The notes beneath the pieces are model-generated. The model saw only the letters and a program-made list of their open reading frames with translations. It had not been told where the DNA came from and searched no databases. Shown piece by piece: positions 24,102 through 48,362 of a DNA stretch of 64,000 nucleotides (position 1 is the first letter of the stretch; each line of letters starts with the position of its first letter). The stretch lies in contig JBFMCP010000002.1 in assembly GCA_040754455.1 (NCBI GenBank), positions 32,001 through 96,000 on the forward strand. The letters are read 5' to 3'. Source of the stretch: Nitrospirota bacterium. GTDB lineage: Bacteria; Nitrospirota; Thermodesulfovibrionia; Thermodesulfovibrionales; Dissulfurispiraceae. A program made the translations under genes and the position numbers.

Positions 24102-24878
24102 CTATATATGTATCCATGCACGATGTTTGCGCCATTGCACATCAACAGAGGTGTTGAAAAAAGACGAAAGGTTTGCTGCGGTAAGGACTTTGCTTATCTC
24201 GCCCGCTGAATGGACTTCTCCCTGACGTAGCAGCAGTGTATGGGTGAAGACCGGCAGTATTTCCTCAATGTGATGTGAGACATAGAGCATCGTCGGCGCA
24301 GAGGCCTGGCCGCCCAGTGTCTCAATCGCAGACAGAATGTGCTCTCTCGAAAAGATATCCAGTCCGATACATGGCTCATCCATGATCAGCAGTCGTGGAG
24401 CATTTATGAGCGCCCGTGCGATGAGGACCTTTTGCTTTTCCCCTTGCGACAATTCGATGTACGGCTGCTTTGCAGCATGACCGCACTTCAGCTGTTCCAG
24501 AAGAGACAGGGCTCTTTCAGCATCTGTCGCTTCTGGCCTGTCATAAAGTCCAATGGTGGCAAACATCCCGCTCAGCACAATCTCTTCAGCAGTCTCGGTC
24601 GTATAGAACCTTTCCTGGAGCGCAGAACTGATGAATCCGATTTCCCGGCGCAACTTCCGCCAGTCATAGGAGCCATACTGCTTGCCAAGCACGTGCATCT
24701 CACCTGCCGACAGGGTTGCATAGCCGTTAAGCAGCTGTAAAAGGGTTGTCTTGCCTGAGCCGTTCAACCCGATAATGGCCCAATGCTCACCAGGAGAAAC
24801 ACACCAGTTGATGTTGCGCAAGATATGCTTCCTGCCAGATATGCAGGAAACGTTTTTCAGATGGACGATTGTCTGCAT
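24102..24878 (-). CDS. ABC transporter ATP-binding protein (ModF/YlmA-like)
   Basis: GLNGSGKT, LSQGEKQ, LLIMDEP, YVSHH. Start placed at MQTIVHL. Confidence 0.88.
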   Translation of the reverse strand: MQTIVHLKNVSCISGRKHILRNINWCVSPGEHWAIIGLNGSGKTTLLQLLNGYATLSAGEMHVLGKQYGSYDWRKLRREIGFISSALQERFYTTETAEEIVLSGMFATIGLYDRPEATDAERALSLLEQLKCGHAAKQPYIELSQGEKQKVLIARALINAPRLLIMDEPCIGLDIFSREHILSAIETLGGQASAPTMLYVSHHIEEILPVFTHTLLLRQGEVHSAGEISKVLTAANLSSFFNTSVDVQWRKHRAWIHI

Positions 24879-25055
24879 GCTTTTAAAATAATGGCAGGTT
24901 GGCCTGCAAGTCAATGTCTCGGCAGTAAGACACAGCGTAATTACGCTTAAATAAAAAGTCTCCGAAGATAAAACGAGGCTCTTCAGTGTTGATGCAAAGT
25001 ATGGAGAAGGGTCTTCATCTGAGAGAAAAGTTCCGGGAGAAAAGTTTGGTAAATT

Positions 25056-25100
25056 TGGTGGTCCCAACGGGAGTCGAACCCGTGTTTTAGCCTTGAGAGG
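25056..25100 (-). tRNA. 3' fragment of tRNA-Glu(CTC) forming the prophage attachment core
   Basis: Minus strand reads CCTCTCAAGGCTAAAACACGGGTTCGACTCCCGTTGGGACCACCA (anticodon loop, T-arm, acceptor 3' strand, CCA). No D-arm or 5' half; adjacent to the integrase 3' end. Confidence 0.88.
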
Positions 25101-25152
25101 CGGGTTGACCTCTATAGAAAAACAACGGAAAATTATTCTATGTACCCTTATT

Positions 25153-26373
25153 CTACCCTTCGTTAGGGGTGGCACTCTCTTTTTTCTTCATGTATTTCTT
25201 ATAGTCTAAGGTATCGATCGCGCGAGAGGAGCCGGGGACCCGGTGTGTGTATTTCATTGTTGTGGTGATACTCTCGTGGCCTGCTTGTTGCTGCACTTTA
25301 TGAGGGGGGACGCCGGAATCCATCAGGTAGCTTGTCCATGTGTGACGTAGGATGTGCAGGGTGATCCATCCGGGTAATTTGAGCTTTGCGATGAATTTCT
25401 TAAACGCTCGATAGAGCGAGTTGGGATCCATGAGCGGGGTATCATGCCTTCCGAAGAAATATTTTCCTTTACGGTTGGAGTTTTTCCGGATGACGCTCTC
25501 AATGTGCGGTACAAGATTGGGGTGTATTTCGATTTCACGGAACTTGTCGCCTTTGCCGTGGACGGTGATGAGGCCGCTGCGCAGGTCGACGTTATCGGGC
25601 TGTAGGTAGAGGAGCTCATACCGTCGCATGCCGGTGTAGATATAGGTGTAAATGATCTCTGAGAAATAACCGAAGGCGGCTTCTCCATTGTAGTTATCTA
25701 GGGCATGCATGATGATCTGCAGGTCGTCGGGATGGATCGCCCTGGGCGCGCGGGCGGGGACCTCTTTAAAGCGCTTGACGCCGGTCCGTGCGGGGTTTTC
25801 GCTGAGTATCTTTTTCCGCACAAGGTAATCGAGCATGATGCGCAGTGCGGTGATCTCTTTATTGACTGTGGATTTAGTGATAGGCGCACCTGTCTTCACG
25901 GCTTTTTGTGTGCGCCGGTGGGTGATATAGTCCTGGATGATCTGGGGGCTGTTCACTTGCCATGGGGCAATGCCTTTGTTTTTAAAATACTCTATGATCG
26001 GCTTTGTCTTATAGCTGTAGGAGGCTCGGGTGCTTTTGCTGCCTACACTATAGACGTGTTTGTCATATTCGTGTTGCAGTTTTTCCCATGTGATGCCGGC
26101 AGGATCTTCAAGATGCTTGCTCTGTGCGCGGCTGGTGAGCTTTGCTACTTCTTCGGCGTCTACTAATTTTTTATGGAGGAAGTAGACGAGCTCTTCATGG
26201 GTGAGTCGATGCTCGAGTGTGAGCACTTCGAGGCGTTTGGCATCCTGGTGGATAAGGATGGCTTTTTTTTCTTTTCGGGCATAGCGGTATTTTTCTTTTT
26301 GAGTGCCGTCGATGTAATAGAGGGTGTAGGTGATTTTGTATCCGTGCTGTTTATGTTTCCAGAGTGAGGCCAT
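25153..26373 (-). CDS. int: Phage integrase (tyrosine recombinase)
   Basis: Catalytic residues TGMRRYEL, HGKGDK, HILRH, GHESITTTMKY; next to the att site. Confidence 0.93.
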   Translation of the reverse strand: MASLWKHKQHGYKITYTLYYIDGTQKEKYRYARKEKKAILIHQDAKRLEVLTLEHRLTHEELVYFLHKKLVDAEEVAKLTSRAQSKHLEDPAGITWEKLQHEYDKHVYSVGSKSTRASYSYKTKPIIEYFKNKGIAPWQVNSPQIIQDYITHRRTQKAVKTGAPITKSTVNKEITALRIMLDYLVRKKILSENPARTGVKRFKEVPARAPRAIHPDDLQIIMHALDNYNGEAAFGYFSEIIYTYIYTGMRRYELLYLQPDNVDLRSGLITVHGKGDKFREIEIHPNLVPHIESVIRKNSNRKGKYFFGRHDTPLMDPNSLYRAFKKFIAKLKLPGWITLHILRHTWTSYLMDSGVPPHKVQQQAGHESITTTMKYTHRVPGSSRAIDTLDYKKYMKKKESATPNEG

Positions 26374-27260
26374 TAGTTATTTATAGCTAGATCGAGCAGT
26401 TTCCAGTTTTTATCGTCGACATGTTGGACTTTGCAGGCATAGTGATTGCGCAGTTTAGCGCCGAAGCTGTTTTGAGCGTCGACGTAGGATATGATCATGA
26501 AGGTATTACGATCGATCGCTGTCAGTGTAGATTCGGTGGACGATGCAAAGTCAGCGGTGGAGGGAGCCTTGAGTTTTTTCTCTACGAATTGTTGGCACAT
26601 GACAAAGGCGTCGAATTTGGAGGGCTTATATTGGGGCTGGGCGGGGGGATTGTAATATGATGTCCCTTTTAAATATGCGCCGAGAAGAGAGAGGACCACG
26701 GCAAGGCAGATAAGGATGCCTATAGCCTTTCCCACTCTCTTAAAGTTAAAAGAGGTAGGACTCTCTTTAACAGGAGGAGGGGTATCTCCTAACTGATCGA
26801 GAAAGCTTTGCTCGGCAGGTGGTGCTTTTGATTCCACCTCTTGGACGGAGTGTAAAGCATCTCTTTTTATTTTTTCGAATTCGTCCATAAATCCCCCCTT
26901 AGAGACTGGTATAATAAATCCACCGCATTTAGTGCATTGTTGGGCATTCCCCGCCATCCATTCTGAACAATGAGGACATCTTTTCATAGGGAACTCACCA
27001 GACGCATATTGGGCTCTGATCCTATTTAAAGAGTCTGCTTCTTGATCATCGTCGAGAGGCAAGATAGAACAGGTACATTTTCTATGGAACGGCGGGTAAT
27101 CATCCTTTGTTGCTGTCGCTATTGCTATTTTTTTGTTTGCTTTCTTCTCACACTTAGGGCAGCAATCTACTGCAGGAGCTACCTCAAAATATTTATATTC
27201 GTCCTCGATAAATTCCTGCAGCTTCTTTTTGAAAAAAGCTTTCGTGGCATACGAGCCCAT
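26373..27260 (-). CDS. Lysogeny-operon accessory membrane protein with Cys/His motifs
   Basis: CCPKC...PPFHRKCTC, zinc ribbon CPHC...CTKC, one TM helix, C-terminal APSTADF...SYVDAQNSFGA domain; AT-rich. Confidence 0.6.
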   Translation of the reverse strand: MGSYATKAFFKKKLQEFIEDEYKYFEVAPAVDCCPKCEKKANKKIAIATATKDDYPPFHRKCTCSILPLDDDQEADSLNRIRAQYASGEFPMKRCPHCSEWMAGNAQQCTKCGGFIIPVSKGGFMDEFEKIKRDALHSVQEVESKAPPAEQSFLDQLGDTPPPVKESPTSFNFKRVGKAIGILICLAVVLSLLGAYLKGTSYYNPPAQPQYKPSKFDAFVMCQQFVEKKLKAPSTADFASSTESTLTAIDRNTFMIISYVDAQNSFGAKLRNHYACKVQHVDDKNWKLLDLAINN

Positions 27261-27274
27261 TCAACGGCCCCTGT

Positions 27275-27661
27275 TTATTTTTTTTTAGAGGGCTTTTTCT
27301 CCAACGCCCGATTAATCAGAAAATCGGTCATATCATCTAGTTCTTCGACCATGCCCAGCTCTTCGACCCGGCGGTATTTCTGGAGATGGAAATGTTCTCT
27401 TTTATCGGTGATGATAGGGGTCTTCTCGTTTATATAAAATTCATAGGGCTCCACATTAAATGCTTTGCAGAATCGCTCCATCAGCTCCTTTCCCATAGGG
27501 ATGTGCCCATTTTCTATCCCGCTCACTCTTTGTCTTTCAATTCCCATAGCCTCGCCAACTTGCTTCTGAGAGATATCTAATTTTTTCCGTAATCTTTTCA
27601 GATTTTTGCCAATAAGGATATCAATATCCTTGGGGGGCGCTGATGTTTTCTTTTTTGCCAT
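27275..27661 (-). CDS. XRE/CI-like phage repressor
   Basis: IGKNLKRLRKKLDISQKQVGEAMGIERQRVSGIENG HTH; divergent from the early operon. Confidence 0.85.
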   Translation of the reverse strand: MAKKKTSAPPKDIDILIGKNLKRLRKKLDISQKQVGEAMGIERQRVSGIENGHIPMGKELMERFCKAFNVEPYEFYINEKTPIITDKREHFHLQKYRRVEELGMVEELDDMTDFLINRALEKKPSKKK

Positions 27662-27715
27662 GTTTAATGATAGAAAAGTTTCCATTTTTTAGAAATTCCT
27701 AAAAAATAATGCTTT

Positions 27716-27756
27716 TTAGAACTATAGGAATCAACTATTAGAACCATAGGAATTAA
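27716..27756. repeat. Tandem 19-bp operator-like direct repeats
   Basis: TTAGAACTATAGGAATCAA and TTAGAACCATAGGAATTAA, 22 bp apart. Confidence 0.6.
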
Positions 27757-27771
27757 AAATTAATTCTCATA

Positions 27772-27801
27772 TTGACAAAGGAATCAATAATTGATTACAT
27801 T
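27772..27801 (+). promoter_or_regulatory. Early lytic promoter with overlapping palindrome
   Basis: TTGACA-18 bp-TACATT; palindrome AATCAA-TAA-TTGATT in the spacer. Confidence 0.6.
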
Positions 27802-28102
27802 CTCCACGTCATGGTTAACGATCGATTCATAAAAAACTTCTTCGACCTCAAAAAATCGCTAACAAAGAGTGTGGAGCCAGGGGTGCAACAACCCTCATAT
27901 GGGATCGTTCGCCATGACAACCCTGTCTCTGCACTTTGTGATGCCGGGGAGACGGCAAGAAAGTTGCCATACACTTCTTTCTCTCCCCGCCGCGCTCCCC
28001 GGCTCATAAAGTCCCTTTTCACGTTTGTATTTAGCCACATCGCCTCAAATGCCGCAATTATAAGAATTCAATTTTTTATAACGCCGAGCTTTGAGGTGAC
28101 TT

Positions 28103-28567
28103 ATGGAAAATTATGAGGCTATTAAACGTTGTTGCGGAAAGTTTATAGCTGAGATTGCGAAACGCCTCGGGCTCAAGCCTGTAACCGTCTATAAATGGAC
28201 TGAACCTTCTGAAGACTTCACCGATTCCGGAGCCCTGAATCCTGTCGACCGGCTTGAGATCATGATGGAGGCGAGCATGTCACTCGGGAACTCCTTCGAG
28301 GATGCGACGGCGCCGCTTCAACGCCTTAACTCTCGTTTTGGGATTATCGGCATCACCCTGCCGAAAAACATTTCTAGCAATGGGGAGCTCTCGCAGGAGC
28401 TCCTTTCCACCATACAGGAATTCGGCCATCTTGCAGAGGAAGCATCCAAGGCCTTTGCAGACGGCAAGCTGACACCCAAGGAGTACCGGCGCATCGAGAA
28501 AGAGGGCTGGGATCTGATCAGGCAGGTAACTGCTTTTATGCACAAGGCAAAGGAGTCTGCTCGATGA
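28103..28567 (+). CDS. Phage regulatory protein, CII (P2/186)-like
   Basis: N-terminal HTH (IAKRLGLKPVTVYKW), C-terminal EFG...AFADGKLTPKEYRRI. Confidence 0.7.
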   Translation: MENYEAIKRCCGKFIAEIAKRLGLKPVTVYKWTEPSEDFTDSGALNPVDRLEIMMEASMSLGNSFEDATAPLQRLNSRFGIIGITLPKNISSNGELSQELLSTIQEFGHLAEEASKAFADGKLTPKEYRRIEKEGWDLIRQVTAFMHKAKESAR

Positions 28568-29025
28568 ACGGAGCCGGTATAGAAGAATTGAAATTATCTG
28601 GCAGTCAGTCCCCCCTGCTGTCAGGTATTCCATCAGGAGAGGAGCCTGCCTCCTCTCCTGAGTATTTTCTTAACACCTCTATGGTGGCCGATATCCTTTT
28701 GCGGCTTGCGCAGAATGAATCCCTCCAAACGGTCTTGATTCAGCATTTTTTCTCTGATGTGATCCTCCAGGAACTGCAGCGCAGAGGGATCGTTGAACCT
28801 TTAATGGACATCGAGGACCTTGCCAAAACGCTCAATCTGACAACCGAAGGGATATACAAAAAAATTCAGAATGAGGAGCTGGGGATTCCTTTTATCAATA
28901 AGGGAAGATGGGGCGGATATAAATTTGACCCGAAAGATGTGCGCGAAGCAATTCGCAAGGCAAAGGTGCATCCGATCGTCAGGCCAGCGAGTCTGAAGCG
29001 GGTAAGAGTAGGGCGACATGGATAA
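28564..29025 (+). CDS. Excisionase-like HTH protein
   Basis: PLMDIEDLAKTLNLTTEGIYKKI...IPF...YKFDP. Confidence 0.6.
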   Translation: MNGAGIEELKLSGSQSPLLSGIPSGEEPASSPEYFLNTSMVADILLRLAQNESLQTVLIQHFFSDVILQELQRRGIVEPLMDIEDLAKTLNLTTEGIYKKIQNEELGIPFINKGRWGGYKFDPKDVREAIRKAKVHPIVRPASLKRVRVGRHG

Positions 29026-29362
29026 GGTACGAGAAATGGTGACCGGAATTCTAGCACAAAAGGGGGAAGCTATGTGGCAAGTTAGGGCTTTGGTTTTTGT
29101 GGTTCTGGTTTTGTCGATCCCTACAGCTTTTATCTGGGGCTGGACGATCGGCGTCAATGACGGGGTCGAGACGGGCAGCAGGCTCGCATATGCGGAGATG
29201 AATAATCTGCTGCGCGAGGGGGCTGCAGGGCACACGCATTTCATGATTCAGGGGCTCGATGCAAAGTTTGTCCCGAGGCCACGGAAGACGATGGATTTCC
29301 AGATTGCCGGCGCCGGCGCCGACACGCCGGTGATCACGGCGCAGGCGAGGGCGGCCCGATGA
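29018..29362 (+). CDS. Hypothetical membrane protein
   Basis: One hydrophobic segment; overlaps neighbouring genes. Confidence 0.5.
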   Translation: MDKVREMVTGILAQKGEAMWQVRALVFVVLVLSIPTAFIWGWTIGVNDGVETGSRLAYAEMNNLLREGAAGHTHFMIQGLDAKFVPRPRKTMDFQIAGAGADTPVITAQARAAR

Positions 29363-29544
29363 AGGGTTCGGTATGGCTGGCGCAAGTGATGCCGATTGTC
29401 TGCACATTGCTGCTCAGCGGTATCTATCCGGACTCGCTGTCGTTCTGGGTGATCATGGCGTTTGTCGCCTGGATATTTCTGAGCCGTGGGAAGTCTGATT
29501 GCGAGCTGATGAAATGTCCGTTCATTAAAAAGGGAAAAGGCTAA
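29359..29544 (+). CDS. Small two-TM protein
   Basis: ATGA overlap with the upstream gene; two hydrophobic segments. Confidence 0.5.
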   Translation: MKGSVWLAQVMPIVCTLLLSGIYPDSLSFWVIMAFVAWIFLSRGKSDCELMKCPFIKKGKG

Positions 29545-29563
29545 AGCGATATACACCCCCCTT

Positions 29564-29621
29564 ACCGGGGAGCTAGGGCATGCAACCCGAACGGCTGAAG
29601 GCCTCCAGCCTGCTCCCCGGT
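29564..29621 (+). ncRNA. Putative three-way-junction RNA element
   Basis: Perfect 10-bp closing stem ACCGGGGAGC/GCTCCCCGGT enclosing GGG/CCC and GGCTG/CAGCC arms. Confidence 0.4.
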
Positions 29622-29653
29622 GCACCTGAGGCGCTACATGACAGGAGGCAGTC

Positions 29654-30289
29654 ATGGAAAAAACAGAAGTCAGGAGTCAGGAGTCAGAAGCCAGAATGGA
29701 ACAGAAGAAGAGCATTTTTGATGGGCTGGTGGAAGTGAAGGAGGAAGGGAGCTTTTATCCCATTATAGAGATCCGCGGAATGAAGTGGGAACGCCGGCAC
29801 ACTTCTTATTTGAATGACATATTTTCCAAGGATAGCAATAAAGAAATCACGATTAAAGATCGTGCGGGGAAAGCAGATTGTAACATCAGCTTTGAGATCG
29901 GGCACGGGCATCGTCTATGGAGATGCAGGAACTTCGATTCCCTTATTGAGGCAGTGGAATACGCATTGGGTCAAGGAATTGAATTGCGCGAGGCTGCAGG
30001 TGTTATTTGGTATAGGTTTTTCGGAGATCGTAAATGGGAAGCGGCATTTTCTCCTGGAGACAAGGGAGACCTGTTCCAGCATGATGAAGGAGATTTTTCT
30101 ATTGAACGGCACCTGCACAGAGGTAATGAATACTTTTCGCTCAGATATTCGGGCAACAACTACAGAGAGGGCCTCGACTGTCGAGTGCTCGACTTTGAGA
30201 CCGCTGCTAAGAAATGTGCTTCGATCTTCATCGGCCTTGAATGGATGAGAGCATCAATGCCGCAGCCGAAAGAGGAGGCGAAGGCATGA
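29654..30289 (+). CDS. Hypothetical phage protein
   Basis: AGGAGG RBS; operon context. Confidence 0.6.
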   Translation: MEKTEVRSQESEARMEQKKSIFDGLVEVKEEGSFYPIIEIRGMKWERRHTSYLNDIFSKDSNKEITIKDRAGKADCNISFEIGHGHRLWRCRNFDSLIEAVEYALGQGIELREAAGVIWYRFFGDRKWEAAFSPGDKGDLFQHDEGDFSIERHLHRGNEYFSLRYSGNNYREGLDCRVLDFETAAKKCASIFIGLEWMRASMPQPKEEAKA

Positions 30290-31356
30290 AAACGATAAGC
30301 TCGTGGCAATACTTTCATCCTGGAAGTAATACCATATATCTCAATTTGAACAGCAGCTCCGGAAAGATCCTTCGACTGGCTCCCGGGCAAGAGCCTTGTT
30401 TTGTCTATAACGGACTCAACCTTCACAATGTTCTACAGGCAGGCTCCCCAAGCTGGCCTCCCACATTCGAATACCTGCAATGCACTGAAGGGGCTGAGAA
30501 CCTCAAAGAACTCATTCTGGATAACGTCCCTGCCCCGCCAGCCCAGAGGATGTTACTTGCATGCTGGATGATTTCGATCTTTACGGCAGGCTTGCTGCCT
30601 GAGCGAGGGTTGCTGCATCTCCTGGGGAATTCTTCCTGTGGGAAATCGAAAACCGCCGAGCGGCTGCATCAGCTGATCAATGGATGCAATTCTTTGCCTG
30701 CGATGTCGATGGCATTTGCGGAGAAATGGGCTATGCGCTATCCGCTGGTAGTGCTCGACAATCTCGAAAACAGGAACCTGGAGAGGAAGACGGTCAATTC
30801 TTTATTGCTCATGTCCCATGGCGCATATTGCCATAGGATGCACGGCGATAGCCCCATCTTGAAAAAGTTCGAGGCGATGACCTTAATCACCGGCATCGAA
30901 GCTTTCCCCAGCAGATTGCCGGAACTGGCGAATAGGGCGATCCCCTTGATGCTGTCTCCGTGCTATAAGCAGGAAGGATACCGGCACGATGAGAACATGC
31001 ATGATGTAGCAAGGAAGAGAAACGTTCTCCTTTCCTCGATCTTTCGCATGATCTCGCTCGAAGTGCTCCCCGGCCTGGAGGACCGCGGGTACTGGGTTCA
31101 TTACCTCGAGGAGAAATACCCCGGGCATCCGCGAGCAAGGCTCAACGGCCATCTCAGTACCATGATGATCATCCTCGAGGCACTTCTGAAGCACATCCCC
31201 TATGGCCGGACTATGGATGAAGCCCTTGGGAAATTAGAGGATAACTGGGACGCCGAAACACGCAGGAAAAGAGCTACCGAAATACTTGCCGGCTGGATGT
31301 TTGAGTGGGCAAGGTTCGATGGGCAGATATCTACGGAGGAGGCTACGACGAAGTGA
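30286..31356 (+). CDS. Stand-alone P-loop NTPase, paralog of the primase C-terminal helicase domain
   Basis: GNSSCGKS Walker A, LVVLDNLENRNL; colinear similarity to 42350-43340. Confidence 0.8.
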   Translation: MKTISSWQYFHPGSNTIYLNLNSSSGKILRLAPGQEPCFVYNGLNLHNVLQAGSPSWPPTFEYLQCTEGAENLKELILDNVPAPPAQRMLLACWMISIFTAGLLPERGLLHLLGNSSCGKSKTAERLHQLINGCNSLPAMSMAFAEKWAMRYPLVVLDNLENRNLERKTVNSLLLMSHGAYCHRMHGDSPILKKFEAMTLITGIEAFPSRLPELANRAIPLMLSPCYKQEGYRHDENMHDVARKRNVLLSSIFRMISLEVLPGLEDRGYWVHYLEEKYPGHPRARLNGHLSTMMIILEALLKHIPYGRTMDEALGKLEDNWDAETRRKRATEILAGWMFEWARFDGQISTEEATTK

Positions 31357-31538
31357 AGACCAGTGCATTCTACATGAAGTCGGAGGTCTTTCAGCAGCAC
31401 GTCGGAGTGATCACCTTGCCGCTCTACGTCCTGGACACGGCTCGTTGTATCAACACTGCGGGGCAGAAACTCGGAGAGCTGATCATTCTCCGGAAGGATC
31501 CTAAGCCGTATGTCACCGATCTGCAGGGAATGAACTGA
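31353..31538 (+). CDS. Hypothetical phage protein
   Basis: GTGA overlap with the upstream gene; GGAGG upstream. Confidence 0.5.
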   Translation: MKTSAFYMKSEVFQQHVGVITLPLYVLDTARCINTAGQKLGELIILRKDPKPYVTDLQGMN

Positions 31539-31674
31539 TGAATGCGATCGAGTTGGCGCGCAAGATGAGAGAAAAGGAGTGCCAGGAAAAGGGGATCGTC
31601 CCGGCGATCCGGATCGCTCTCAACGTGAAGACCAATATTGGTTATTACTTTACAGATATACAAGGGAGGAATTG

Positions 31675-31938
31675 ATGAGCAAAGACCCCATCTACACTGA
31701 AGAATACATGGAAGCAAGGCGAGCAAAACCAGGAGATGAAAGCAGGGCGATCGTCTTAATGATTGGTGATCGTTTCTTCTGTGGTTTCGGCAAGAAAGAC
31801 CGAGTGATTGTTGCTTGGTCTCTTGCCGGAGCCTGGCTTTTTGGTTCGTGGGATCCTGACGGTATAGCAAAGATTGAGAGCAGGATAACAAAGAGAGGAA
31901 TAACATTCGAGAGGAGAATTGTTTCCCTTGAGCAATAA
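31675..31938 (+). CDS. Hypothetical phage protein
   Basis: GGAGG RBS before MSKDPIY; a 45-aa ORF (31538-31675) lies upstream. Confidence 0.55.
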   Translation: MSKDPIYTEEYMEARRAKPGDESRAIVLMIGDRFFCGFGKKDRVIVAWSLAGAWLFGSWDPDGIAKIESRITKRGITFERRIVSLEQ

Positions 31939-32615
31939 TCCTTTCTTTGAATGTAAAAAGCTCTCTATCCAATTCATGAGGCCCTCGGAATGCGTCAGGA
32001 AACACCAGGCCAAAGATCCGGCAAGTATTGCCCTTTATCCGGTCTGTGCAGCTTGCGAGGACGGCGCCAGGCGCGCAGCTGAGACGCCGGCGTCATTGCC
32101 CCTGAGTCCCCGGAAGACTGCGAAAGCAATGATCGAGAGACCTCGCATTGTCGTTTCAGAGAAGCTCTCAGAGGTTATCAAAAAAACAAAAGATCGAGCA
32201 ATCCAAGAAATAGAGGCATCCGTATCGGCGCAGCCTGAGCCAGGCGCGCCGGAGGCAAAGGAGGAAACCCGTATGGCCACAAAGAAAGATAAGAGGTGTC
32301 GTATCCCGGGATGTAAAAGCAACAAGGTCAAAGACGACCTTTGCACAAAGCATTTCCGGAAAGAGCATGGAGCGGCTCCCTTCGGCAAAGGGGCAGCGCC
32401 GAAAGAAAAAAAGAATAAGAAACGCGATGTGAACGTCACGCCCCCCCCCGAAAATTTCCAGGACATCAATCGACAAGCCGGTCATCGAGAAGCTGCTGCA
32501 GGAGCTCCTGACAAGGGCGGAAGAGGTTCGCAGACTCTACACAACGCTGTATGTCATGAAGGAGTACGGCGCGGACATCGAGCTGCCCGACATCAAAACA
32601 TTGGTGGGGGCATAG
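31919..32615 (+). CDS. Cys-rich hypothetical protein, apparently frameshifted at a C9 tract
   Basis: The frame after 32441-32449 switches to a natural-looking KISRTSIDKPVIEKLLQELL...GA*. Confidence 0.5.
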
Positions 32616-32973
32616 CGTGAAGGAGAAAACTCTGGCGCAGCTATTCAAACCACTGATCGAGAAATACGGTTCCCGGCGGGTGGCCGAGGCAATAGATGAA
32701 TTTCTCAAGAAAGGCAGGAAGTAGGATGTTGTCCACACAGGAATTACCAAAGGAGTTTATAGGGCACACTGCTATCAACAATGCATACGTCATCTGCATA
32801 GCGTGCAGCAACCACATCATTATCATCGATGGGAGCTCTCGCACATGCCCATTCTGCAACAAGGGGCATTATGACTACCGGGCCGATGAACGTGCAGTCT
32901 TCTTCACTGATTACAGGCAGCTCCCTATAACAAAGTTTTCAGCACAGTCAAATTTTTCACTGGAGGTAACAAT

Positions 32974-33597
32974 ATGAGCAAAAAAGAATTGAAGGATCTG
33001 AATTCAGGCACACTCTGGGGCCGTATCGCCTCAGCTATTAGAAAGAAGTCGGACGGGGGCAAGCCTTATATTTTTATCACTCTTGAATGCGGCAATGAGT
33101 TCCTGGGCAATGTGCAGACATATGTCCGACTCTGGGGCGAGGAGCGCGTGGAGAAGTTCCTGGATTATTACAAGCAGCATCCTCATGACGCTTATCGTTT
33201 CTTCTGTTTCTTCAACCAGTACGAGGACGACGGGAGAATCCTCAGCAATTATACGGCTTACAAATGGGTCCCCTACCAGGGCTCGGAACTGAAAGCTACA
33301 TTTATTTTGAGGGGTAAGATCACCGGCGGGGACCTATCGGCAGATGAACCATATTTGAACCTTTACCTGAAGCGTGAAGGCGGCGAGGGATACGAACCTG
33401 CTGAGGAAAAGTTCTTGGTCTATCTCCATCCCAAGATGGTTTTTGTCAAAGGGGCGTCCCGTGAGGATCTCAAGGAGGATGCTCATGTCGAAATAGCGGG
33501 CTACCTGCGAGCCAAGGAGCCTGAGGACAGCTTTGGCCGGCAATCGAGCGATATCCGGCCGTACGTGATGGAAATGATCGTTTATCCGCCATTTTAA
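32974..33597 (+). CDS. Possible SSB-like (tandem OB-fold) protein
   Basis: NSGTLWGRI...VRLWG and second repeat FILRGKI...VEIAGYL; GGAGG RBS. Confidence 0.5.
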   Translation: MSKKELKDLNSGTLWGRIASAIRKKSDGGKPYIFITLECGNEFLGNVQTYVRLWGEERVEKFLDYYKQHPHDAYRFFCFFNQYEDDGRILSNYTAYKWVPYQGSELKATFILRGKITGGDLSADEPYLNLYLKREGGEGYEPAEEKFLVYLHPKMVFVKGASREDLKEDAHVEIAGYLRAKEPEDSFGRQSSDIRPYVMEMIVYPPF

Positions 33598-33608
33598 GGA
33601 GGGGAAGG

Positions 33609-34037
33609 ATGGCTTATTCACAGCATCAGGAACTGTTCAGCAATGCCGGTCTCGAGACCGCCACATTTGCCGGCAATGTCTGTCTCGAGACCGGCTACAG
33701 CTGCGTAGAGTGGCTCTCCTGGTTCAGGGCTCACCATTCGCAGCTTGCTGCGAAATACCAGGCGGCTGAGGAGAAGATCAACACGCTCTGGGGCAAAAGC
33801 GACAGCAAGAGCATGGGAGAGTTTCAACGGGCCATAAAGAACTGGACCGATGCTATCAAGCTTGCCGTCGAAAAATACGTTGCCTGGAGGAAGGAGCAGG
33901 GGCATCCGCTGGACTATGTTTCGGAGCTGCCGGCGGAGGAATACAAGGGGCCTAAGACGCTGGCCGAGGCGATTGTGCAGGGGTGTGTGACTATGGAAAT
34001 AACAGTTAAAGAAAAACAATTTGCGGGGTGCGTGTAA
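33609..34037 (+). CDS. Hypothetical phage protein
   Basis: AAGGAGG RBS; operon context. Confidence 0.6.
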   Translation: MAYSQHQELFSNAGLETATFAGNVCLETGYSCVEWLSWFRAHHSQLAAKYQAAEEKINTLWGKSDSKSMGEFQRAIKNWTDAIKLAVEKYVAWRKEQGHPLDYVSELPAEEYKGPKTLAEAIVQGCVTMEITVKEKQFAGCV

Positions 34038-34333
34038 TGGCAATAGTTACGCTCAATTTTAAGGTCAACACCGAGAATTTCCCTCTCACGTTCAGCAAAC
34101 AGCGGAGAGATTTTTTCAAGCGCCTGGCTGAAGAGGCTAAAGGCGATGATGCGAAGAAAGCTGCCCTGGAGAAGGCAGAGTTCTTCGGCGCTATTGTCGA
34201 AGGCCTCGAACGGGCGCAGATGGCTGGTGACAACCTCATGCTGATCATGCGCAACCTGATCCAGCCCTATATCGACAAATACGGCCGAGAGACGGTCCTC
34301 GACATGATCATGTCGAGCCTGGGCGGGAAATGA
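34037..34333 (+). CDS. Hypothetical phage protein
   Basis: TAATG coupling to the upstream gene. Confidence 0.6.
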   Translation: MAIVTLNFKVNTENFPLTFSKQRRDFFKRLAEEAKGDDAKKAALEKAEFFGAIVEGLERAQMAGDNLMLIMRNLIQPYIDKYGRETVLDMIMSSLGGK

Positions 34334-34701
34334 AGATCATCCAGGAATATCCCCTTAGGATCGAGGAAGAGCAGCGGTTGATGCTGCCTCCAGATTCGGA
34401 GGTCCTGGCGATCGTCATTAAGTTGTGCAAATCAGTTCAATATTCCCTTGAGGGGATGTCATGGACACCAGAATGGTCCCTGATCCTCTGCGCGAAGATA
34501 TACAAAGACAGCGAGCCGACTGAAGAATGGATCATCAAGATGATCAAGAGCAGGGAAGAGTTGGGGTGCCCTAACGGAGACTATAAGACAACGGTTCAAT
34601 GGGGTGATGATCTGTACCACATTTACTGTGCTCCGAAGCCGGAGCCGTATGCCTGGTATGACAAAAAGCCAAAGGACGATGGAGAGATCGTCTCGCCCTG
34701 A
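34330..34701 (+). CDS. Hypothetical phage protein
   Basis: ATGA overlap; operon context. Confidence 0.55.
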   Translation: MKIIQEYPLRIEEEQRLMLPPDSEVLAIVIKLCKSVQYSLEGMSWTPEWSLILCAKIYKDSEPTEEWIIKMIKSREELGCPNGDYKTTVQWGDDLYHIYCAPKPEPYAWYDKKPKDDGEIVSP

Positions 34702-34909
34702 GAAAGTCGATCCTAGGGCCTCTCAGGAGGTCGACCGGAGCAGGTTCGACCCCGATGTGCAGAAATGTCTCATGTTGCTGGATAGAGTTTTTAGAAAGGA
34801 AATTACAGCGGAGCAGATGGAGAGGATGCTGAAAATACATTATTACAAGCCTCATCAAACAAACTGCCGTCACAGGCGGGAGAAAAAGAACCAGCCGAGG
34901 TTAATGTGA
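34679..34909 (+). CDS. Hypothetical phage protein
   Basis: Start MERSSRP after AAGGA; operon context. Confidence 0.45.
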   Translation: MERSSRPEKVDPRASQEVDRSRFDPDVQKCLMLLDRVFRKEITAEQMERMLKIHYYKPHQTNCRHRREKKNQPRLM

Positions 34910-35070
34910 ACTGCACTATTTGCAAAGAGACTTATGAGGGTAATCCTCCTTGTGATGAATGTCTAGCTCTGCTCATAGGCCCTAAGGCTGCACCGACTCC
35001 CCTCCTGGATGAGCTTGAGACAGGGCCTTGGCCGTCTTTTGTGACAGAGGACGGGGGACCCGGAGAATGA
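34906..35070 (+). CDS. 54-aa microprotein: CxxC/CxxC knuckle plus DsrA N-terminal-like motif
   Basis: MNCTICKETYEGNPPCDECLALLIGPKAAPTPLLDELETGPWPSFVTEDGGPGE*. GAGG RBS, GTGA overlap upstream and ATGA overlap downstream. Below the ORF-track length cutoff. Confidence 0.75.
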   Translation: MNCTICKETYEGNPPCDECLALLIGPKAAPTPLLDELETGPWPSFVTEDGGPGE

Positions 35071-35306
35071 AAACCTCAAACATTATTGATGTCAGAGGAG
35101 ACTGTATGTACAAGCAACCGACGACGTTTGACTGGCTCGTTAATTCTTCATCCGAGGAAACGAGGAATACTGCTCGGCGGACCGATGATATCGCCGTCCT
35201 CGAGAGCGCCCTCGAGGCGGTGAAGAAAAAGGGAGAAAAGACAAAAGAGAAGATCATCCAGGCGCGCATTAACCGGCTCAGAAAAACAGGGAGCAATAAC
35301 CAGTGA
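35067..35306 (+). CDS. Hypothetical phage protein
   Basis: ATGA-coupled start; alternative start at 35106 after GAGGAG. Confidence 0.55.
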   Translation: MKTSNIIDVRGDCMYKQPTTFDWLVNSSSEETRNTARRTDDIAVLESALEAVKKKGEKTKEKIIQARINRLRKTGSNNQ

Positions 35307-35629
35307 GTAGCCTAGCCCATTTAAAGCCTGCTACGAAAGCTCTCTTTATCCCTCTCAAGAAAGAGCACTTCGATGCCTTCGAGCGTGGAGATAAGACGTT
35401 CGAGTTCCGGCAGTTCGGCAAAAGGTGGAATGAGAGGACCTGCAAGGTCGGAAGACCTGTAGTGCTGTCCTGTGGATACGGGAAGGCTCGGAGGCTCTCT
35501 GGGACTATTAAGTCTTTTGCGAAGAGTCCTGTCTGGAAGTCAAAGGGCTACGCTGAATATTTACTCTGCTATGGAGGTCTGGCTATCGGGCCAGTTGCTG
35601 AGATAGAAATTGAAGTTAAAAGGAGGTGA
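35303..35629 (+). CDS. ASCH/PUA-like domain protein
   Basis: LFIPLKKEHFDAFERGDKTFEFR (GxKxxExR signature). Confidence 0.7.
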   Translation: MSSLAHLKPATKALFIPLKKEHFDAFERGDKTFEFRQFGKRWNERTCKVGRPVVLSCGYGKARRLSGTIKSFAKSPVWKSKGYAEYLLCYGGLAIGPVAEIEIEVKRR

Positions 35630-35635
35630 TGAACA

Positions 35636-35851
35636 ATGTCCTATTCAGTGAATCAGAAGTGTTACGACTGCAAGAAGCAGCCTAAATGTTCCGACGGAAA
35701 CATTATCCAGGCTGCAGTATCACTCATTCATACACTTGGAACCGACAAGGGGCACTTGGGAGGCGGCAGTATTACCCATGAGTGTACCTATGGGTTCGAG
35801 GATAAGAATGCACCGGAAGCAGCACCGGCCGGCGAACAGCAGCCGACATAA
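35636..35851 (+). CDS. Small Cys-rich protein
   Basis: AGGAGG RBS; CYDC...C motif. Confidence 0.55.
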   Translation: MSYSVNQKCYDCKKQPKCSDGNIIQAAVSLIHTLGTDKGHLGGGSITHECTYGFEDKNAPEAAPAGEQQPT

Positions 35852-35861
35852 GGCTGAGACG

Positions 35862-35889
35862 AAAGGGGAGGGGCAACTCTCCCCTTTTT
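35862..35889 (+). terminator. Intrinsic terminator within the early operon
   Basis: AAAGGGGAGGG-GCAA-CTCTCCCCTTTT. Confidence 0.65.
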
Positions 35890-35921
35890 AATTAACTCTT
35901 AACTTTTATGAAAGGGAAACA

Positions 35922-36164
35922 ATGATCACACTGGGACAGAAGTATAAAGACAAGATCACCGGCTTTGAAGGAGTGGCTACAGGCTACGTGCAATACATCA
36001 GCGGCTGTAATCAGGCGCTTCTTGTTCCAAAGGTTTCAGCAGATGGAACACTGCGCGAATCACTATGGTTTGATGTTCAGCGTTTGGAGGTTGTGGGGAC
36101 AGAAGTAATCAAGCTCGATAACGGCGAGAAGCCCGGATGTGATTGTCCGGCACCTAAACGGTAA
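35922..36164 (+). CDS. Small SH3-like phage protein
   Basis: LGQKYKDKITGFEGVATG...GC...WFDVQRL pattern. Confidence 0.6.
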   Translation: MITLGQKYKDKITGFEGVATGYVQYISGCNQALLVPKVSADGTLRESLWFDVQRLEVVGTEVIKLDNGEKPGCDCPAPKR

Positions 36165-36628
36165 TGATCCTGGCATTTCTTCAAAACCTCTGGGTGAAAG
36201 AGCCTGAAAGAGCTCGAGCGATACTCGAAAGAGAGTCCGAAGAGTTCCGTGTTCAGTTTATTAGGAGACTGTTGTTTCACGGAGGGTTGACCGGCAAGCG
36301 TATTCAGCAATGTTTCGGTGATCTTACCTCGATCATCATTTTTGAGGAGGCCACGCGGGAGATATCCGGGGACTCGAAGACGATCTGTCCTCCGGATCCT
36401 CGGCATATAGCTGGATGCCTGGACCGATATCGGCCGGTGGTAGTACTGACATTCGGGAAGGTGGCATCAGATGCTGTTGCGCCTCTATGGAAAGGGCGTT
36501 TATTGGTTTGCCCTCATCCTGCAGCGAGACAGCGCGACACAGTAACAAAGCTGCAAGCTGCAGCGGAAGAACTCACGGAATGGTGGGTGGAGAACTATGG
36601 CATGCCCGCACAGAGAGCAGATCGGTAA
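36164..36628 (+). CDS. Uracil-DNA glycosylase superfamily-like protein
   Basis: PVVVLTFGKVA and CPHPAAR motifs; N-terminal FLQN. Confidence 0.55.
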   Translation: MILAFLQNLWVKEPERARAILERESEEFRVQFIRRLLFHGGLTGKRIQQCFGDLTSIIIFEEATREISGDSKTICPPDPRHIAGCLDRYRPVVVLTFGKVASDAVAPLWKGRLLVCPHPAARQRDTVTKLQAAAEELTEWWVENYGMPAQRADR

Positions 36629-36987
36629 GGGCCTCTACTTCTGCTTACAGCAGGGGGCATGCTGCACTCGCTGCAGAGCGGTGCCGGTGGAGATTCGGCT
36701 CAATGTGAAAAAGGGAGCCAGCAATAAAACTACGAGCGCACTGAAGAAAGCGCTCGTGCACGCCGCGAGGCATTTTATGGAGGGGAAGTAATGTACGGGT
36801 ATCTCTATGATCGAGCTTTGACGTTGGAAATGCGTGAATGGCTGCGGGCGAGTTGGGAGATTTTCCAATTTAACTTTAGACCGGACATCACGGTCATCCC
36901 CCGCATAAGGATGTTTCATCGGAAGATGATGATTTGTTTAAGCGGCTGGCTTGGAAGAGTCGGCAAAAAGAAAAAGAGAGGCAAATA

Positions 36988-37488
36988 GTGGATATTTACG
37001 TTCCCGATCGGCAGGAACTTAATTCCATAAAGAAGCCCGCAAAAGTGAAGGGCAACAGATGGGGCTTCTGCGGCATCGCAGCCATGAGCGCGGCGATCGG
37101 GATTGCCCCATTAAAGATATGCGACTCAATTCCGGACTGGCCCGGATATACGCCCTCGAGGATGCTTATCGAAACGCTGGCGAAGTTCGGTTATGACTGC
37201 AGGAGGATCCTGATCCCGAAACTGGAGCAGCAAATGTGGCCGTTATATCAAGCAGGGCATCCCTCCAAGATAGCGATCGGCCGTATTTACTGGAGCGAAG
37301 GGAAATACGCCGATTCTCACTGGATTTGTTTTAACTGGAGCATGGAGAGTCTGGACGATCCTTATCCGGGACTATATGACAACACCTTCTACGATGGCTG
37401 GTGGGATACCAGGCATTTGAAATTCTATATCGAGAACAGGACGGCGAAGCTCAAGAGTTTGTATTTCGTCATAAAGGGGGAGAAATAA
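36988..37488 (+). CDS. Papain/C39-like cysteine peptidase candidate
   Basis: FCGIAAMS (Cys), SHWI (His), LYDN (Asp). Confidence 0.45.
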   Translation: MDIYVPDRQELNSIKKPAKVKGNRWGFCGIAAMSAAIGIAPLKICDSIPDWPGYTPSRMLIETLAKFGYDCRRILIPKLEQQMWPLYQAGHPSKIAIGRIYWSEGKYADSHWICFNWSMESLDDPYPGLYDNTFYDGWWDTRHLKFYIENRTAKLKSLYFVIKGEK

Positions 37489-37490
37489 TT

Positions 37491-38450
37491 ATGGGAACCA
37501 AATCGGTTCAGAAAAAAGGTTTGCTGTATCTATCTAAGGATGATCTTCTCACTCATCCGAAGAACCTGCGGCGTTTCTATCCGGAGTACCAGGTGCGCGA
37601 GATGGCTGAATCGATCCGCGCGGTCGGCGGAGTGCTGCAGGCGCTGCTAATCGTCCATAGCGGCCAGGCCGGGAAATACTTTGTCGTAGACGGCAATATG
37701 CGGCTTGCCGGCGCGAGGGCATTAGGGGATGAATGTCCTCCGCTCAAATGCGAAATAGTAGACAAGGGCAAGGCCGAGCAGCTGCTGGCCATGGTGGTGA
37801 CTGCGAAGTTTCGTTACGAACCCGATCCCATAAGCGAGGCGCTCCATTATAAACGCTTGATCGAAGAGGAGGGCTATAGCGCCCCCCGAATTTCCAGAGC
37901 AACGGGCACACATACCGCCACTATCTATACAAGACTTAAATTGCTCGAGCTCGATCCGGAGATACAGGAGCTGATAGGTAATCGCAAACTGCCTTCAGCC
38001 CAAGAGGCGATTAATGCCCTTCTCTCAATCTCTGATCCACGGGTGAGAGTGAAGCTTGCTCAGCGCCTGGCAAAGGATGAGCCGACTATAAAGGCTGTTG
38101 TCGCTGCCTGCGATCGGCTTCTTTCTCAGCTTGGAAAAGTCTCGGCTTCCAAAACGAAAGGATCTCCGGCCCTTGCACATCAAGAAACATCAGGTGCTGG
38201 CATCAACCGGAATTCGACGGTGGACATGGAGCACGTGCGCGATGCGGCCAAGGCAACCTGTAAAGAATGCGACATTCGACTCGGGCAGCTTTCGTCAGCC
38301 CCGGAGCCTGCATGGGCGCTGATCACGCACGCCGCTGAACAGACATGTGATGCCTGTAACATCCGGGAAGTAATCGGTGCCTGCAAAAACTGCCCGGCCG
38401 TCGACATTATGCGCAACCTTATTAATGCAATGACGGTAGGGCGCGCATGA
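37491..38450 (+). CDS. ParB/Srx-family protein with C-terminal Cys cluster
   Basis: HPKNLR...SIRAVGGVLQALL...VVDGNMRL, HTH, then CKEC/CDAC/CKNC. Confidence 0.8.
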   Translation: MGTKSVQKKGLLYLSKDDLLTHPKNLRRFYPEYQVREMAESIRAVGGVLQALLIVHSGQAGKYFVVDGNMRLAGARALGDECPPLKCEIVDKGKAEQLLAMVVTAKFRYEPDPISEALHYKRLIEEEGYSAPRISRATGTHTATIYTRLKLLELDPEIQELIGNRKLPSAQEAINALLSISDPRVRVKLAQRLAKDEPTIKAVVAACDRLLSQLGKVSASKTKGSPALAHQETSGAGINRNSTVDMEHVRDAAKATCKECDIRLGQLSSAPEPAWALITHAAEQTCDACNIREVIGACKNCPAVDIMRNLINAMTVGRA

Positions 38451-39613
38451 TGGATAATCTGGATCTGCTCATCGAGACCTCAACGGTCCAGGGACAGCTC
38501 GATGCGGGGATATCGCCATCGGTCGTTGCTGCGCGCTCATCACTCGGTACGCGCGGGGTTGCAGTGCTTTCGGGCAAAAAGGGTGAAACCAGGAAGGCAA
38601 AGATGCCGAGCTGGACCCCGGAAGAAGATAAGTTCCTGGAGACGTATCTCGGCATCCTTTCCGAGGAGGAGATCGCCGAGGCCCTGGGGAGGACATATTA
38701 TGCTGTGCACGTCCGATGGAAACGGGATCTGGCATTAAGAGCGCCCTCAAAGCGGCCTGATGTTTTGACGGGCAACCAGGTGGCTTATGGTTTGGGAATA
38801 GACATTCATTCCGCTATGCATCTTATCGACCGGGGCATTCTACCGGGATGGGAGCTGCCTTCTGTGCGCCGGATGCGAATCGTCAGGAGGATTGTGCTCC
38901 TTCAATTCATAACCAATCCTCTGAACTGGTGTTACTTCAAGCCGGAGAGGGTTGGACGAGCTCAATTTTCACCGAAGACGATGCTTCGAAAAGGGAAGGC
39001 ATACGATGTTGAGTTTTGGGAATATGCTCGCCGCCTGGTGCTGAAGCGGAAAAGCCTCTGGAAAGATGAGTGGTGGCGAATCGGCGAGGTTGCCCGGTAT
39101 CACGGGGTAGATCACTCCCTTGTAAATAAATATATCCACGACGGCGTCCTGAAAGCAACAGACTGGGGCAACTGGTGGATTCTGAAATCGCACGCGATGG
39201 ATCCTTCATTGCATTTCGTTACCGGGAAAGGGCGTAAGGGAGTTGACGTTATCAATGTGAGCCAGCGTGCAGAGGCATTCATCGTGCTTGCTGAAGCGGT
39301 CGGGCTGATGGAATCGGAGATCGCTGCATTGATGACATGGAAAGAGAAACGTATCACATATCTGAAGCGCCGGCTGCGCGAACAGGGACGCATTCCGCAG
39401 ATCATCAAAGAGAACAATCTGAAGGTCTATTACAACAAGAAAACGGAAGAGGTTTATGCGGACTGGAAGAAACACCGTGATCGGTTCCCGCGGCTTTCAA
39501 AGCTGATGGGACGGCGCGGGCGCCCAGGGCGGCGGAGCCGCGTAGAGGCGAAATATATCAACCGTGTGAAACGAAAGGCTGAGGTATATAGAGAGTGGAA
39601 AAGCAGAAGATAA
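38447..39613 (+). CDS. Multi-HTH DNA-binding protein
   Basis: WTPEEDKFL...EIAEALGRT (Myb-like) and two excisionase-like HTH repeats. Confidence 0.6.
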   Translation: MMDNLDLLIETSTVQGQLDAGISPSVVAARSSLGTRGVAVLSGKKGETRKAKMPSWTPEEDKFLETYLGILSEEEIAEALGRTYYAVHVRWKRDLALRAPSKRPDVLTGNQVAYGLGIDIHSAMHLIDRGILPGWELPSVRRMRIVRRIVLLQFITNPLNWCYFKPERVGRAQFSPKTMLRKGKAYDVEFWEYARRLVLKRKSLWKDEWWRIGEVARYHGVDHSLVNKYIHDGVLKATDWGNWWILKSHAMDPSLHFVTGKGRKGVDVINVSQRAEAFIVLAEAVGLMESEIAALMTWKEKRITYLKRRLREQGRIPQIIKENNLKVYYNKKTEEVYADWKKHRDRFPRLSKLMGRRGRPGRRSRVEAKYINRVKRKAEVYREWKSRR

Positions 39614-40164
39614 GAGAGCATCAATTCATAACTCCTGCCGAATGTGACTGCGGCGGTACCGGGCATTGCAATATCTGCGATGGAGGATTGGCCATATGTA
39701 AGATCTGCGGAGGAGCTGAAGGATCTCTTCCGACCGAGTGCCCTGGCGAAAAGATGATCGCTCATCAGGATGAGGCTGTCTACGCCGGCAAGCTCGATTT
39801 CTTTAATGGTCAATGGACCGTGATTCTATCCTCACACCGAATTGATGCTTACAGCGATAATCACCGGCACGAGGATATCCCCCAAGCTTATCGTGTTTGT
39901 GAAAATGCCGATTCAGTTACCGGGCTTATGATCTACGGGCTCTATAACGGCGAGTGGATAGCGAATCCTAATGGACGTGCCTTGATCAGGCATCTCCTGG
40001 ATGAACTGCAGAAAGCACAGGAAGAAATTAAGATTTCTGATAAGCTCCTCGCCGAACGCAATCGAGTTTTAGAGGCAATCCCGGAATGTCCAATACATGG
40101 CAAGCAGTGTATTCCACACGCGATGGATTGGATCCAGCGGAAGAGGGGGAAGGTGTCAGCATGA
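39595..40164 (+). CDS. Cys-rich phage protein
   Basis: CDC...CNICDGGLAICKICGGAEGSLPTECPG. Confidence 0.6.
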   Translation: MEKQKIREHQFITPAECDCGGTGHCNICDGGLAICKICGGAEGSLPTECPGEKMIAHQDEAVYAGKLDFFNGQWTVILSSHRIDAYSDNHRHEDIPQAYRVCENADSVTGLMIYGLYNGEWIANPNGRALIRHLLDELQKAQEEIKISDKLLAERNRVLEAIPECPIHGKQCIPHAMDWIQRKRGKVSA

Positions 40165-40324
40165 AAGGTACTGAAGAAAATACTCAGAAAGGGAATCATG
40201 ACCCAAAGATGGTTTCCTTTGAATTAAGGGAAGTGGGAGATGTAGAAATAATCCTTCTTCCTGCAAAGGAATGGAAGCTGGTATCTAGTGATCAGGATTT
40301 AATTGTGCTGAGCAGAGGGAGGGG

Positions 40325-46523: not shown

Positions 46524-47007
46524 CAAAAGAACGGCCAACTGGGAACGTCTCATACCGCTTTTTCAGTCCTATGTCGATACGTTCGGGGCCGAGCTGGGGG
46601 GAATGGTCATTGATTACATCGCCCGAATGATCGGCGGGTACCGGATCTCTTTCCCGGAAAAGCTGACGCCGATCACCAGGCATTCGGAGAGCTGGGTTAT
46701 CCTCGCCCAGTTTTATGATGTCCTATGCTCGGACCTCAGCAAGATCGAGATGCCGAAGGCACCTGAAGAATTCCGTAACGGCTCCAGGCTGTCGGGGAAC
46801 CGGATAGGCCAGGTCGTTATGAAGGAGATGTTTCGTAGACTCAAGGGCCATCGGATTTCATTTGTCAGGCTTGAAGAGATGCATCGCATCGAGCGTGACG
46901 AGAAGATCCGCAAAGAGCGGAAGGAGCATGGCACCAGCGTCACCGTCCTCGCCGAGCGCAGCGGCCTGGATGAAGTGACGATATGGAGAATATTGAGGGA
47001 GGAATAA
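46513..47007 (+). CDS. Mor/C-like late transcription activator
   Basis: GGYRISFP, a repeat KGHRISFV, then RDEKIR...VLAERSGLDEVTIWRIL HTH; TTG start after GGAGGAG. Confidence 0.7.
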   Translation: MSNNKRTANWERLIPLFQSYVDTFGAELGGMVIDYIARMIGGYRISFPEKLTPITRHSESWVILAQFYDVLCSDLSKIEMPKAPEEFRNGSRLSGNRIGQVVMKEMFRRLKGHRISFVRLEEMHRIERDEKIRKERKEHGTSVTVLAERSGLDEVTIWRILREE

Positions 47008-48350: not shown

Positions 48351-48362
48351 CATTTGGAGATC

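Follow-up and report, generated by a model that had tools for sequence, protein, structure and literature searches.

A putative phage microprotein with a tail matching the N-terminal arm of dissimilatory sulfite reductase DsrA in a Nitrospirota prophage

The prophage and the 54-codon ORF

We analysed a 64,000-nucleotide stretch of a Nitrospirota genome (the window), where bases 1 to ≈24,000 hold host genes and a prophage lies to the right of these (Table 1). The host genes include CO dehydrogenase/acetyl-CoA synthase subunits and a NuoF-type plus molybdopterin oxidoreductase set, together with an Nfn-like pair, MurB, HisG, ScpA, a multihaem cytochrome and glutamate dehydrogenase. The predicted gene content fits an anaerobe with the Wood-Ljungdahl pathway, to which the cluster at 592-13087 points. 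As to the original prediction that the host has dsrAB, the genes for CO dehydrogenase/acetyl-CoA synthase, the Nfn-like pair and the multihaem cytochrome would be in keeping with an anaerobe of a type in which sulfate reduction is frequent, and no more than that.

The original prediction had placed the ORF in a phage element, and this is borne out by the presence of integrase, cI-like, CII-like, primase (1046 residues), terminase and portal genes; ParB-like proteins, Mor, methylases and a cement protein are also encoded. The prophage has two tyrosine recombinases, of which the XerC/D-like one lies mid-element beside a Mor-type activator. The gene for an ABC/AAA_21-type ATPase, which overlaps the end of the integrase gene, could encode a defence function at the edge of the prophage, and a DUF488 protein further to the right matches candidate defence families. 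Moreover, a protein with fused phage Dam-like and GNAT-like domains is followed by a ParB/nuclease-like protein, and this region looks like a DNA-modification module, while a 784-residue protein combines a methyltransferase with a DNA polymerase III beta clamp, a fusion that is unusual for a phage.

The ORF studied here is situated ≈6.3 kb downstream of the regulators of the prophage (left end, 25153-28567), within the same series of small rightward genes and before a ParB-like gene (37401) and the primase gene (40737). It is on the same strand as its phage neighbours and tightly packed with them between the regulatory and the replication modules, i.e. it has the position of an early-operon gene. 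The ORF and its GAGG ribosome-binding site were found as originally predicted, as were the four cysteines of a CTIC-x9-CDEC knuckle in the translation, whereas the predicted 4-base overlaps on both sides could be upheld in part. Specifically, the GTG start overlaps the TGA of the upstream frame (34907-34909) to give GTGA at 34906-34909; the upstream small ORF itself is without match in Pfam, PHROG or PDB. On the 3' side an ATGA (35067-35070) is present in the sequence, and a start at ATG 35067 would give a downstream protein of 79 aa. However, a start at ATG 35106, behind a GAGGAG, is more probable for this gene and yields the 66-aa form that is on record (2 contigs), and the 3' overlap is for these reasons doubtful.

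Table 1 Features of the window discussed in the text
Feature	Coordinates	Strand	Remarks
Host CdhD/ACS/CODH cluster	592-13087	+	Two CdhD-family proteins, 734-residue ACS beta subunit with CODH_A_N domain, 666-residue CODH; then NuoE/NuoF-CBS/Fe-S/molybdopterin set, formate-dehydrogenase-like complex
ABC/AAA_21-type ATPase	24102-25175	-	Matches PADLOC mad3 (E 1.9e-24), AriA, PtuA
Tyrosine integrase	25153-26373	-	Prophage left end
cI-like HTH repressor	27275-27685	-	Prophage left end
CII-like protein	28103-28567	+	Prophage left end
Early ORF with paired CxxC motifs	32696-32977	+	
Upstream small ORF	34679-34909	+	Start uncertain: GTG 34604 or ATG 34679
Shine-Dalgarno-like GAGG	34897-34900	+	5 nt before GTG start; read from the sequence
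Microprotein ORF	34906-35070	+	GTG start, 54 codons, TGA stop; protein MNCTICKETYEGNPPCDECLALLIGPKAAPTPLLDELETGPWPSFVTEDGGPGE
Four-cysteine knuckle, CxxC-x9-CxxC	34912-34962	+	C3, C6, C16, C19; presumed zinc ribbon
DsrA N-terminal arm copy	34993-35049	+	Residues 30-48, PTPLLDELETGPWPSFVTE
Acidic, glycine-rich end, DGGPGE	35050-35067	+	Unlike DsrA
Downstream small gene	35106-35306	+	66 aa from ATG 35106; GAGGAG at 35095-35100
Early ORF with paired CxxC motifs	35636-35851	+	
Second tyrosine recombinase	45510-46523	+	XerC/D-like
Mor-type activator	46408-47007		
Dam-like/GNAT-like fusion	48354-49661	+	PF22555 + PF22559
ParB/nuclease-like protein	49634-50428		
Methyltransferase/clamp fusion	51029-53383	+	784 residues; methyltransferase ≈146-272, full three-domain clamp 440-776
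DUF488 protein	53385-53816	+	Matches PDC-M45B (E 2.7e-22), PDC-M19A

Using a codon log-odds table built from 30 prophage genes, the microprotein frame scored +2.73 bits and was the best of the six frames (the other five ranged between -7.2 and -34.3). Its score per codon, 0.05 bit, is at the low end of the 0.03-0.44 seen for most phage genes, and its GC3 is 0.44 compared to 0.63. The Shine-Dalgarno-like site and the start-stop overlap lend support to translation, and on balance we think that the microprotein is probably, if by no means certainly, translated after induction. An identical 54-aa protein has been recorded once (P0002), from a contig of 4111 bases.

The two CxxC pairs of the knuckle constitute a putative metal site. 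The best Pfam match of the microprotein was Zn_ribbon_11 (E 0.057; 13.5 bits, under the cutoff of 24), and RUBY_RBDX matched with an E-value of 2.4; the ESM Atlas leads were small zinc-ribbon proteins (0.85-0.89, under the 0.9 level), and neither PADLOC nor PHROGs gave a match to the ORF. An AlphaFold2 single-sequence model has helices at residues 2-9 and 16-24 (pLDDT 74-79 for residues 1-20) and no secondary structure in the tail (pLDDT 56-62). As modelled, a disordered tail beside a more confidently predicted knuckle would be typical of a docking peptide. In a model of a full DsrA with the same arm peptide (L018, see below), the arm forms a short helix (residues 10-15), a GPWPS turn and a helix from residue 23, with pLDDT values of 68-80. 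Two more early ORFs have paired CxxC motifs (Table 1), and the early region thus holds several cysteine-knuckle microproteins.

The tail and its relation to dsrA

A DsrA-like motif had been claimed for the tail, and it was found exactly at the predicted position. In a phmmer search of 177,635 distinct PDB sequences (E ≤10) there were five matches, every one a DsrA chain (3or1_A, 3.7e-5; 3or2_A, 4.8e-5; 3mm5_A, 1.9e-4; 2xsj_A, 3.2e-4; 2v4j_A, 1.7e-3), with query residues 29/30-48 aligned to residues 3-23 of the DsrA chains. A comparison with DsrA databases had been suggested as a check, and in the PDB it returned significant DsrA matches; moreover, the N-terminal strings that the original prediction had given for Archaeoglobus and Desulfovibrio agree with the alignments to 3mm5 and 2v4j. 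We also built an arm HMM from 66 DsrAs, translated from retrieved loci, and searched with it every stop-to-stop frame of 20 or more residues in the window, 1716 in total. The microprotein frame scored 49.8 bits (E 1.3e-14), compared to 6.2 bits for the runner-up among these frames and to a top score of 10.2 bits among 5000 shuffles of the microprotein.

The arm copy, PTPLLDELETGPWPSFVTE, is identical in 19/19 residues to the DsrA encoded at L018, which is from a Bryobacterales metagenome-assembled genome, as well as to the DsrAs P0003, P0010-P0016, P0019 and P0022. All 12 positions that are invariant across the 66 DsrAs (T-P-x-L-D-x-L-E-x-G-P-W-P-S-F arm) are kept in the tail, the invariance of T17 in this alignment being imposed by the search pattern. 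The likeness to DsrA stops sharply at E48; the DsrAs go on with I/L-K, where K28 is nearly invariant. Taken together, the tail is almost certainly a homologue of the DsrA N-terminus that descended from a 5' coding segment of dsrA. The original judgement that a match of this kind is unlikely by chance therefore holds, as all five PDB matches are DsrAs and the HMM score far exceeds those of the next frame and of the best shuffle. With 19 consecutive identical residues added to the E-value within the window and to the shuffles, none of which scored above 10.2 bits, we regard the probability of a chance resemblance as negligible.

To place the DNA of the arm we used 80 comparison dsrA loci, which were chosen by the patterns APTPLLDE and ETGPWPSF from at least 295 relatives and are accordingly pattern-biased. 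Over the 57 bases of the arm the phage copy shares on average 38.7 bases with the 80 dsrAs, and at most 44 (77%), whereas the 80 dsrAs share 43.2 bases on average among themselves; judged by mean identity or by nearest neighbour, only one of the 80 is as isolated as the phage copy. No recent DNA donor was thus found among the 80 sampled dsrAs. A DNA-level comparison with the host dsrA had been proposed with the original prediction; run on the sampled dsrAs, it gave the identical peptide in L018, yet the same codons in only 5 of 19 positions. Moreover, the synonymous codons of the arm fit prophage usage better, by 3.6 bits, than the usage of the host genes in the window. These data, from 19 codons and 80 pattern-biased dsrAs, lean weakly towards a phage copy that was not acquired recently, and for an old copy the intact peptide would imply selection. 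A very recent neutral capture from a dsrA outside the sample would give the same perfect peptide, and a closer donor may be present beyond the 80 of at least 295 relatives. The segment may either have been captured as a short piece or be the remnant of a larger captured dsrA. As to the claim that the phage captured a segment of the host dsrA, the homology to dsrA stands; the host would be only a candidate donor, as the window is without a dsr gene and the best sampled dsrA is as distant as given above.

Searches for relatives of the microprotein gave no homologue in protein libraries of 1.84 and 5.8 billion sequences, among GenBank phages or in 185,579 genomes. From the 1.84-billion representative library we retrieved the microprotein itself, two DsrA N-terminal fragments and two repeat proteins (P0005 and P0006), which we discarded as relatives. 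In the 5.8-billion library, the matches among 11 candidates of 29-95 residues were again the microprotein and two DsrA N-terminal pieces, and among 129 candidates of 96-2000 residues there were 56 matches with E ≤1, all of them DsrAs with the arm at the N-terminus. PF01077 and/or PF03460 was present in 55 of the 56, the exception (P0035) being a partial DsrA of 117 aa; the knuckle occurred in none of the 56, and no fused or longer form of the microprotein was detected among them. For the libraries searched, it is supported by these matches that the arm motif stands outside a full DsrA only in the predicted microprotein, two short DsrA N-terminal pieces aside.

Among GenBank phages (E ≤10), four of seven records belonged to the rdsrA gene of Lau218, which is full-length and matches residues 31-47 with 88% identity; the other three, from Microbacterium and Capybara phages (E 0.04-2), were dismissed as chance matches. 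The scan of the 185,579 genomes, among which the genome of the window is not included, gave among the matches listed only dsrA 5' ends of other organisms. One of these, L001, aligned to residues 12-47 (57%) and hence into the knuckle, and this extension was rejected as chance because the extra part is untranslated DNA upstream of the dsrA ATG and is seen in one locus only. The downstream neighbour is likewise an orphan, for which only its own two forms were found (its C-terminal half has a weak PDB match, E 8e-4, to the VASP tetramerisation coiled coil, probably reflecting coiled-coil composition only). A megablast of 28000-40200 against GenBank phages gave no relatives, and the best tblastn match of the portal among these phages had 29.9% identity (Microcystis phage MACPNOA1). 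An orphan neighbour and so distant a portal indicate that the phage is unsampled, and the orphan status of the microprotein therefore carries no weight in either direction.

Possible roles of the microprotein

The best explanation overall, which we put forward tentatively and at less than even confidence, is that the ORF codes for a chimeric phage early microprotein in which a captured dsrA segment acts as a decoy at the docking site of the DsrA arm. According to this model, the rightward early operon of the integrated tailed phage would include a small gene for a two-part chimera, with the four-cysteine knuckle (residues 3-19) as a folded handle and the arm copy (residues 30-48) as a flexible tail. 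The microprotein would be produced after induction along with the other early genes, and its tail would dock on the surface that receives the DsrA arm, either in DsrAB during assembly or in a factor that recognises the arm. Such docking would perturb or tap dissimilatory sulfite metabolism. The homology to dsrA, the chimeric make-up, the setting in a phage early region and the gene-like arrangement are evident from the sequence, whereas translation and docking are inferred. The decoy step is the likeliest single specific mechanism, although we consider it possible rather than probable; in our view it is unlikely that infected cells have their dissimilatory sulfur metabolism re-tuned, as originally suggested, by a motif-only copy of the universally conserved arm that acts as a decoy on DsrB, on DsrAB or on a factor that recognises the arm. 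The arm is tethered in cis to DsrA and would be hard for a free peptide to displace, and DsrAB is an abundant and long-lived enzyme, so that inhibition within one lytic cycle would bring no obvious gain, which counts against a decoy. As to the role or the contacts of the DsrA N-terminus, we found no statement in the accessible portions of 10.1101/2021.12.28.474277, PMC10229431 and PMC8794893.

The same chimera could be made without any role in Dsr metabolism, if the ORF is translated, its function resides in the knuckle and the dsrA segment was joined to it in frame by an accident of illegitimate recombination. We see this as a possible though doubtful account. It would agree with an orphan that has one sequence on record, with the weak codon adaptation and low GC3, and with the break after E48 and before K28, which is as sharp as a random breakpoint; small Cys-knuckle ORFs are common in the early region, and a recent capture explains a perfect peptide without selection. 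On the other hand, the nearest sampled dsrA is far off at the DNA level and only one of the 80 stands as much apart as the copy does, the synonymous codons of the copy lean to phage usage, and frame and orientation have been kept with the invariant arm whole. Translation itself could be denied, such that a piece of dsrA DNA lies between two real genes and a frame of 54 codons is open by luck. That the ORF was recorded on only one of the contigs bearing the neighbouring gene, that it was reported absent from the gene track together with the original prediction, that its total coding score is just above zero and that the downstream overlap is doubtful would all agree with such a scrap. But the other five frames score far lower, the GAGG is well spaced from a start that overlaps the upstream stop, no stop interrupts the dsrA piece, which is read in the sense frame, and the 200 bases would, if non-coding, form a gap that is unusually long for a tightly packed operon; we therefore judge this reading unlikely.

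A role at the level of DNA or RNA, with the 5' copy of dsrA serving as the core of an attachment site or as an antisense or decoy RNA against dsrA mRNA, appears very improbable. Copies of a gene end are carried by phages that use the gene as their integration site, and the piece does come from the translation-start end of dsrA. However, the ORF is ≈8.6 kb from the integrase and ≈10.4 kb from the second recombinase and not at a prophage end, and the attachment-site idea was rejected on this position inside the prophage. The window has 0 Rfam matches, no promoter-like site was seen on the adjoining minus strand, and the DNA identity to all 80 sampled dsrAs is ≤77%.

If the decoy explanation is true, the microprotein, as a peptide mimic and not an enzyme, would be without precedent among the "auxiliary" elements of the sulfur cycle. 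The DsrA arm would then be a trans-acting interaction element, and the most conserved part of DsrA would gain a candidate function. An arm of 19 residues on a phage zinc knuckle would be a different viral route to a key step of the sulfur cycle. Should the segment instead be a neutral scrap, it would provide a tidy example of how new small phage genes arise from the ends of host genes.

Comparison with DsrA, phage dsr genes and other small viral proteins

Judged from its predicted sequence, the microprotein is not a DsrA. Its 19 arm residues match the N-terminal arm in the DsrA structures (3mm5, 2v4j, 3or1, 3or2 and 2xsj), with all invariant positions present in the microprotein. DsrA, however, has 390-450 aa compared to 54, the microprotein is without the sirohaem or [4Fe-4S] cysteines, and the arm, which is N-terminal in DsrA, is at its C-terminal end behind the cysteine knuckle. 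In Pfam the microprotein has neither a NIR_SIR_ferr (PF03460) nor a NIR_SIR (PF01077) domain. When 66 DsrAs and 58 DsrBs were run against the window with tblastn, the sole match to dsr genes was at 34975-35049, with no dsrB beside the microprotein; the remaining matches (E ≥0.002) were to ferredoxin-type stretches of host iron-sulfur proteins and were set aside. In some alphaproteobacterial-type DsrAs (P0004, P0025-P0027 and P0040; loci L002 and L004) a cysteine-rich extension directly precedes the arm, e.g. C-G-x-S-C-G-C; P0004, a truncated form of 68 residues, and L004 are from one 2.49-Mb contig. Real enzymes thus tolerate a module on the N-terminal side of the arm, and such a module would be compatible with a docked arm.

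The auxiliary metabolic genes dsrA and dsrC of phages (SUP05 phages, Lau218) are, like the microprotein gene, dsr-derived genes of phages. The phage dsr genes recorded so far are whole dsrA and dsrC/tusE genes, and for the SUP05 phages Kieft et al. 2021 (PMC8190135) describe whole genes of the oxidative type with the substrate- and sirohaem-binding residues, thought to add enzyme capacity; a mimic, a truncated or an N-terminal-only dsr form is not mentioned in the main text of that paper. A motif-only dsr element in a phage was also not found in open-access papers and bioRxiv, and on this literature it appears to be undescribed. In contrast to the auxiliary genes, the microprotein is not full-length, has the arm alone and could not be an enzyme.

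The microprotein shares its size, the CxxC...CxxC knuckle and the place in an early operon with small zinc-binding early proteins of temperate phages (Zn_ribbon_11 and NinF of the lambda nin region), which, with a Pfam E-value of 0.057 and ESM Atlas values of 0.86-0.87, we regard as weak leads only. The four-cysteine knuckle is a common type among small phage early proteins, but none of the Zn_ribbon_11/NinF-type proteins has a segment of a host enzyme, unlike the microprotein. Viral mimicry of short linear motifs of the host is well known for eukaryotic viruses, and there, too, a disordered viral tail bears a copy of a host peptide. The difference is in what is copied: linear-motif mimicry involves motifs of 3-10 residues from disordered regions, whereas the microprotein would carry 19 residues of an ordered enzyme arm.
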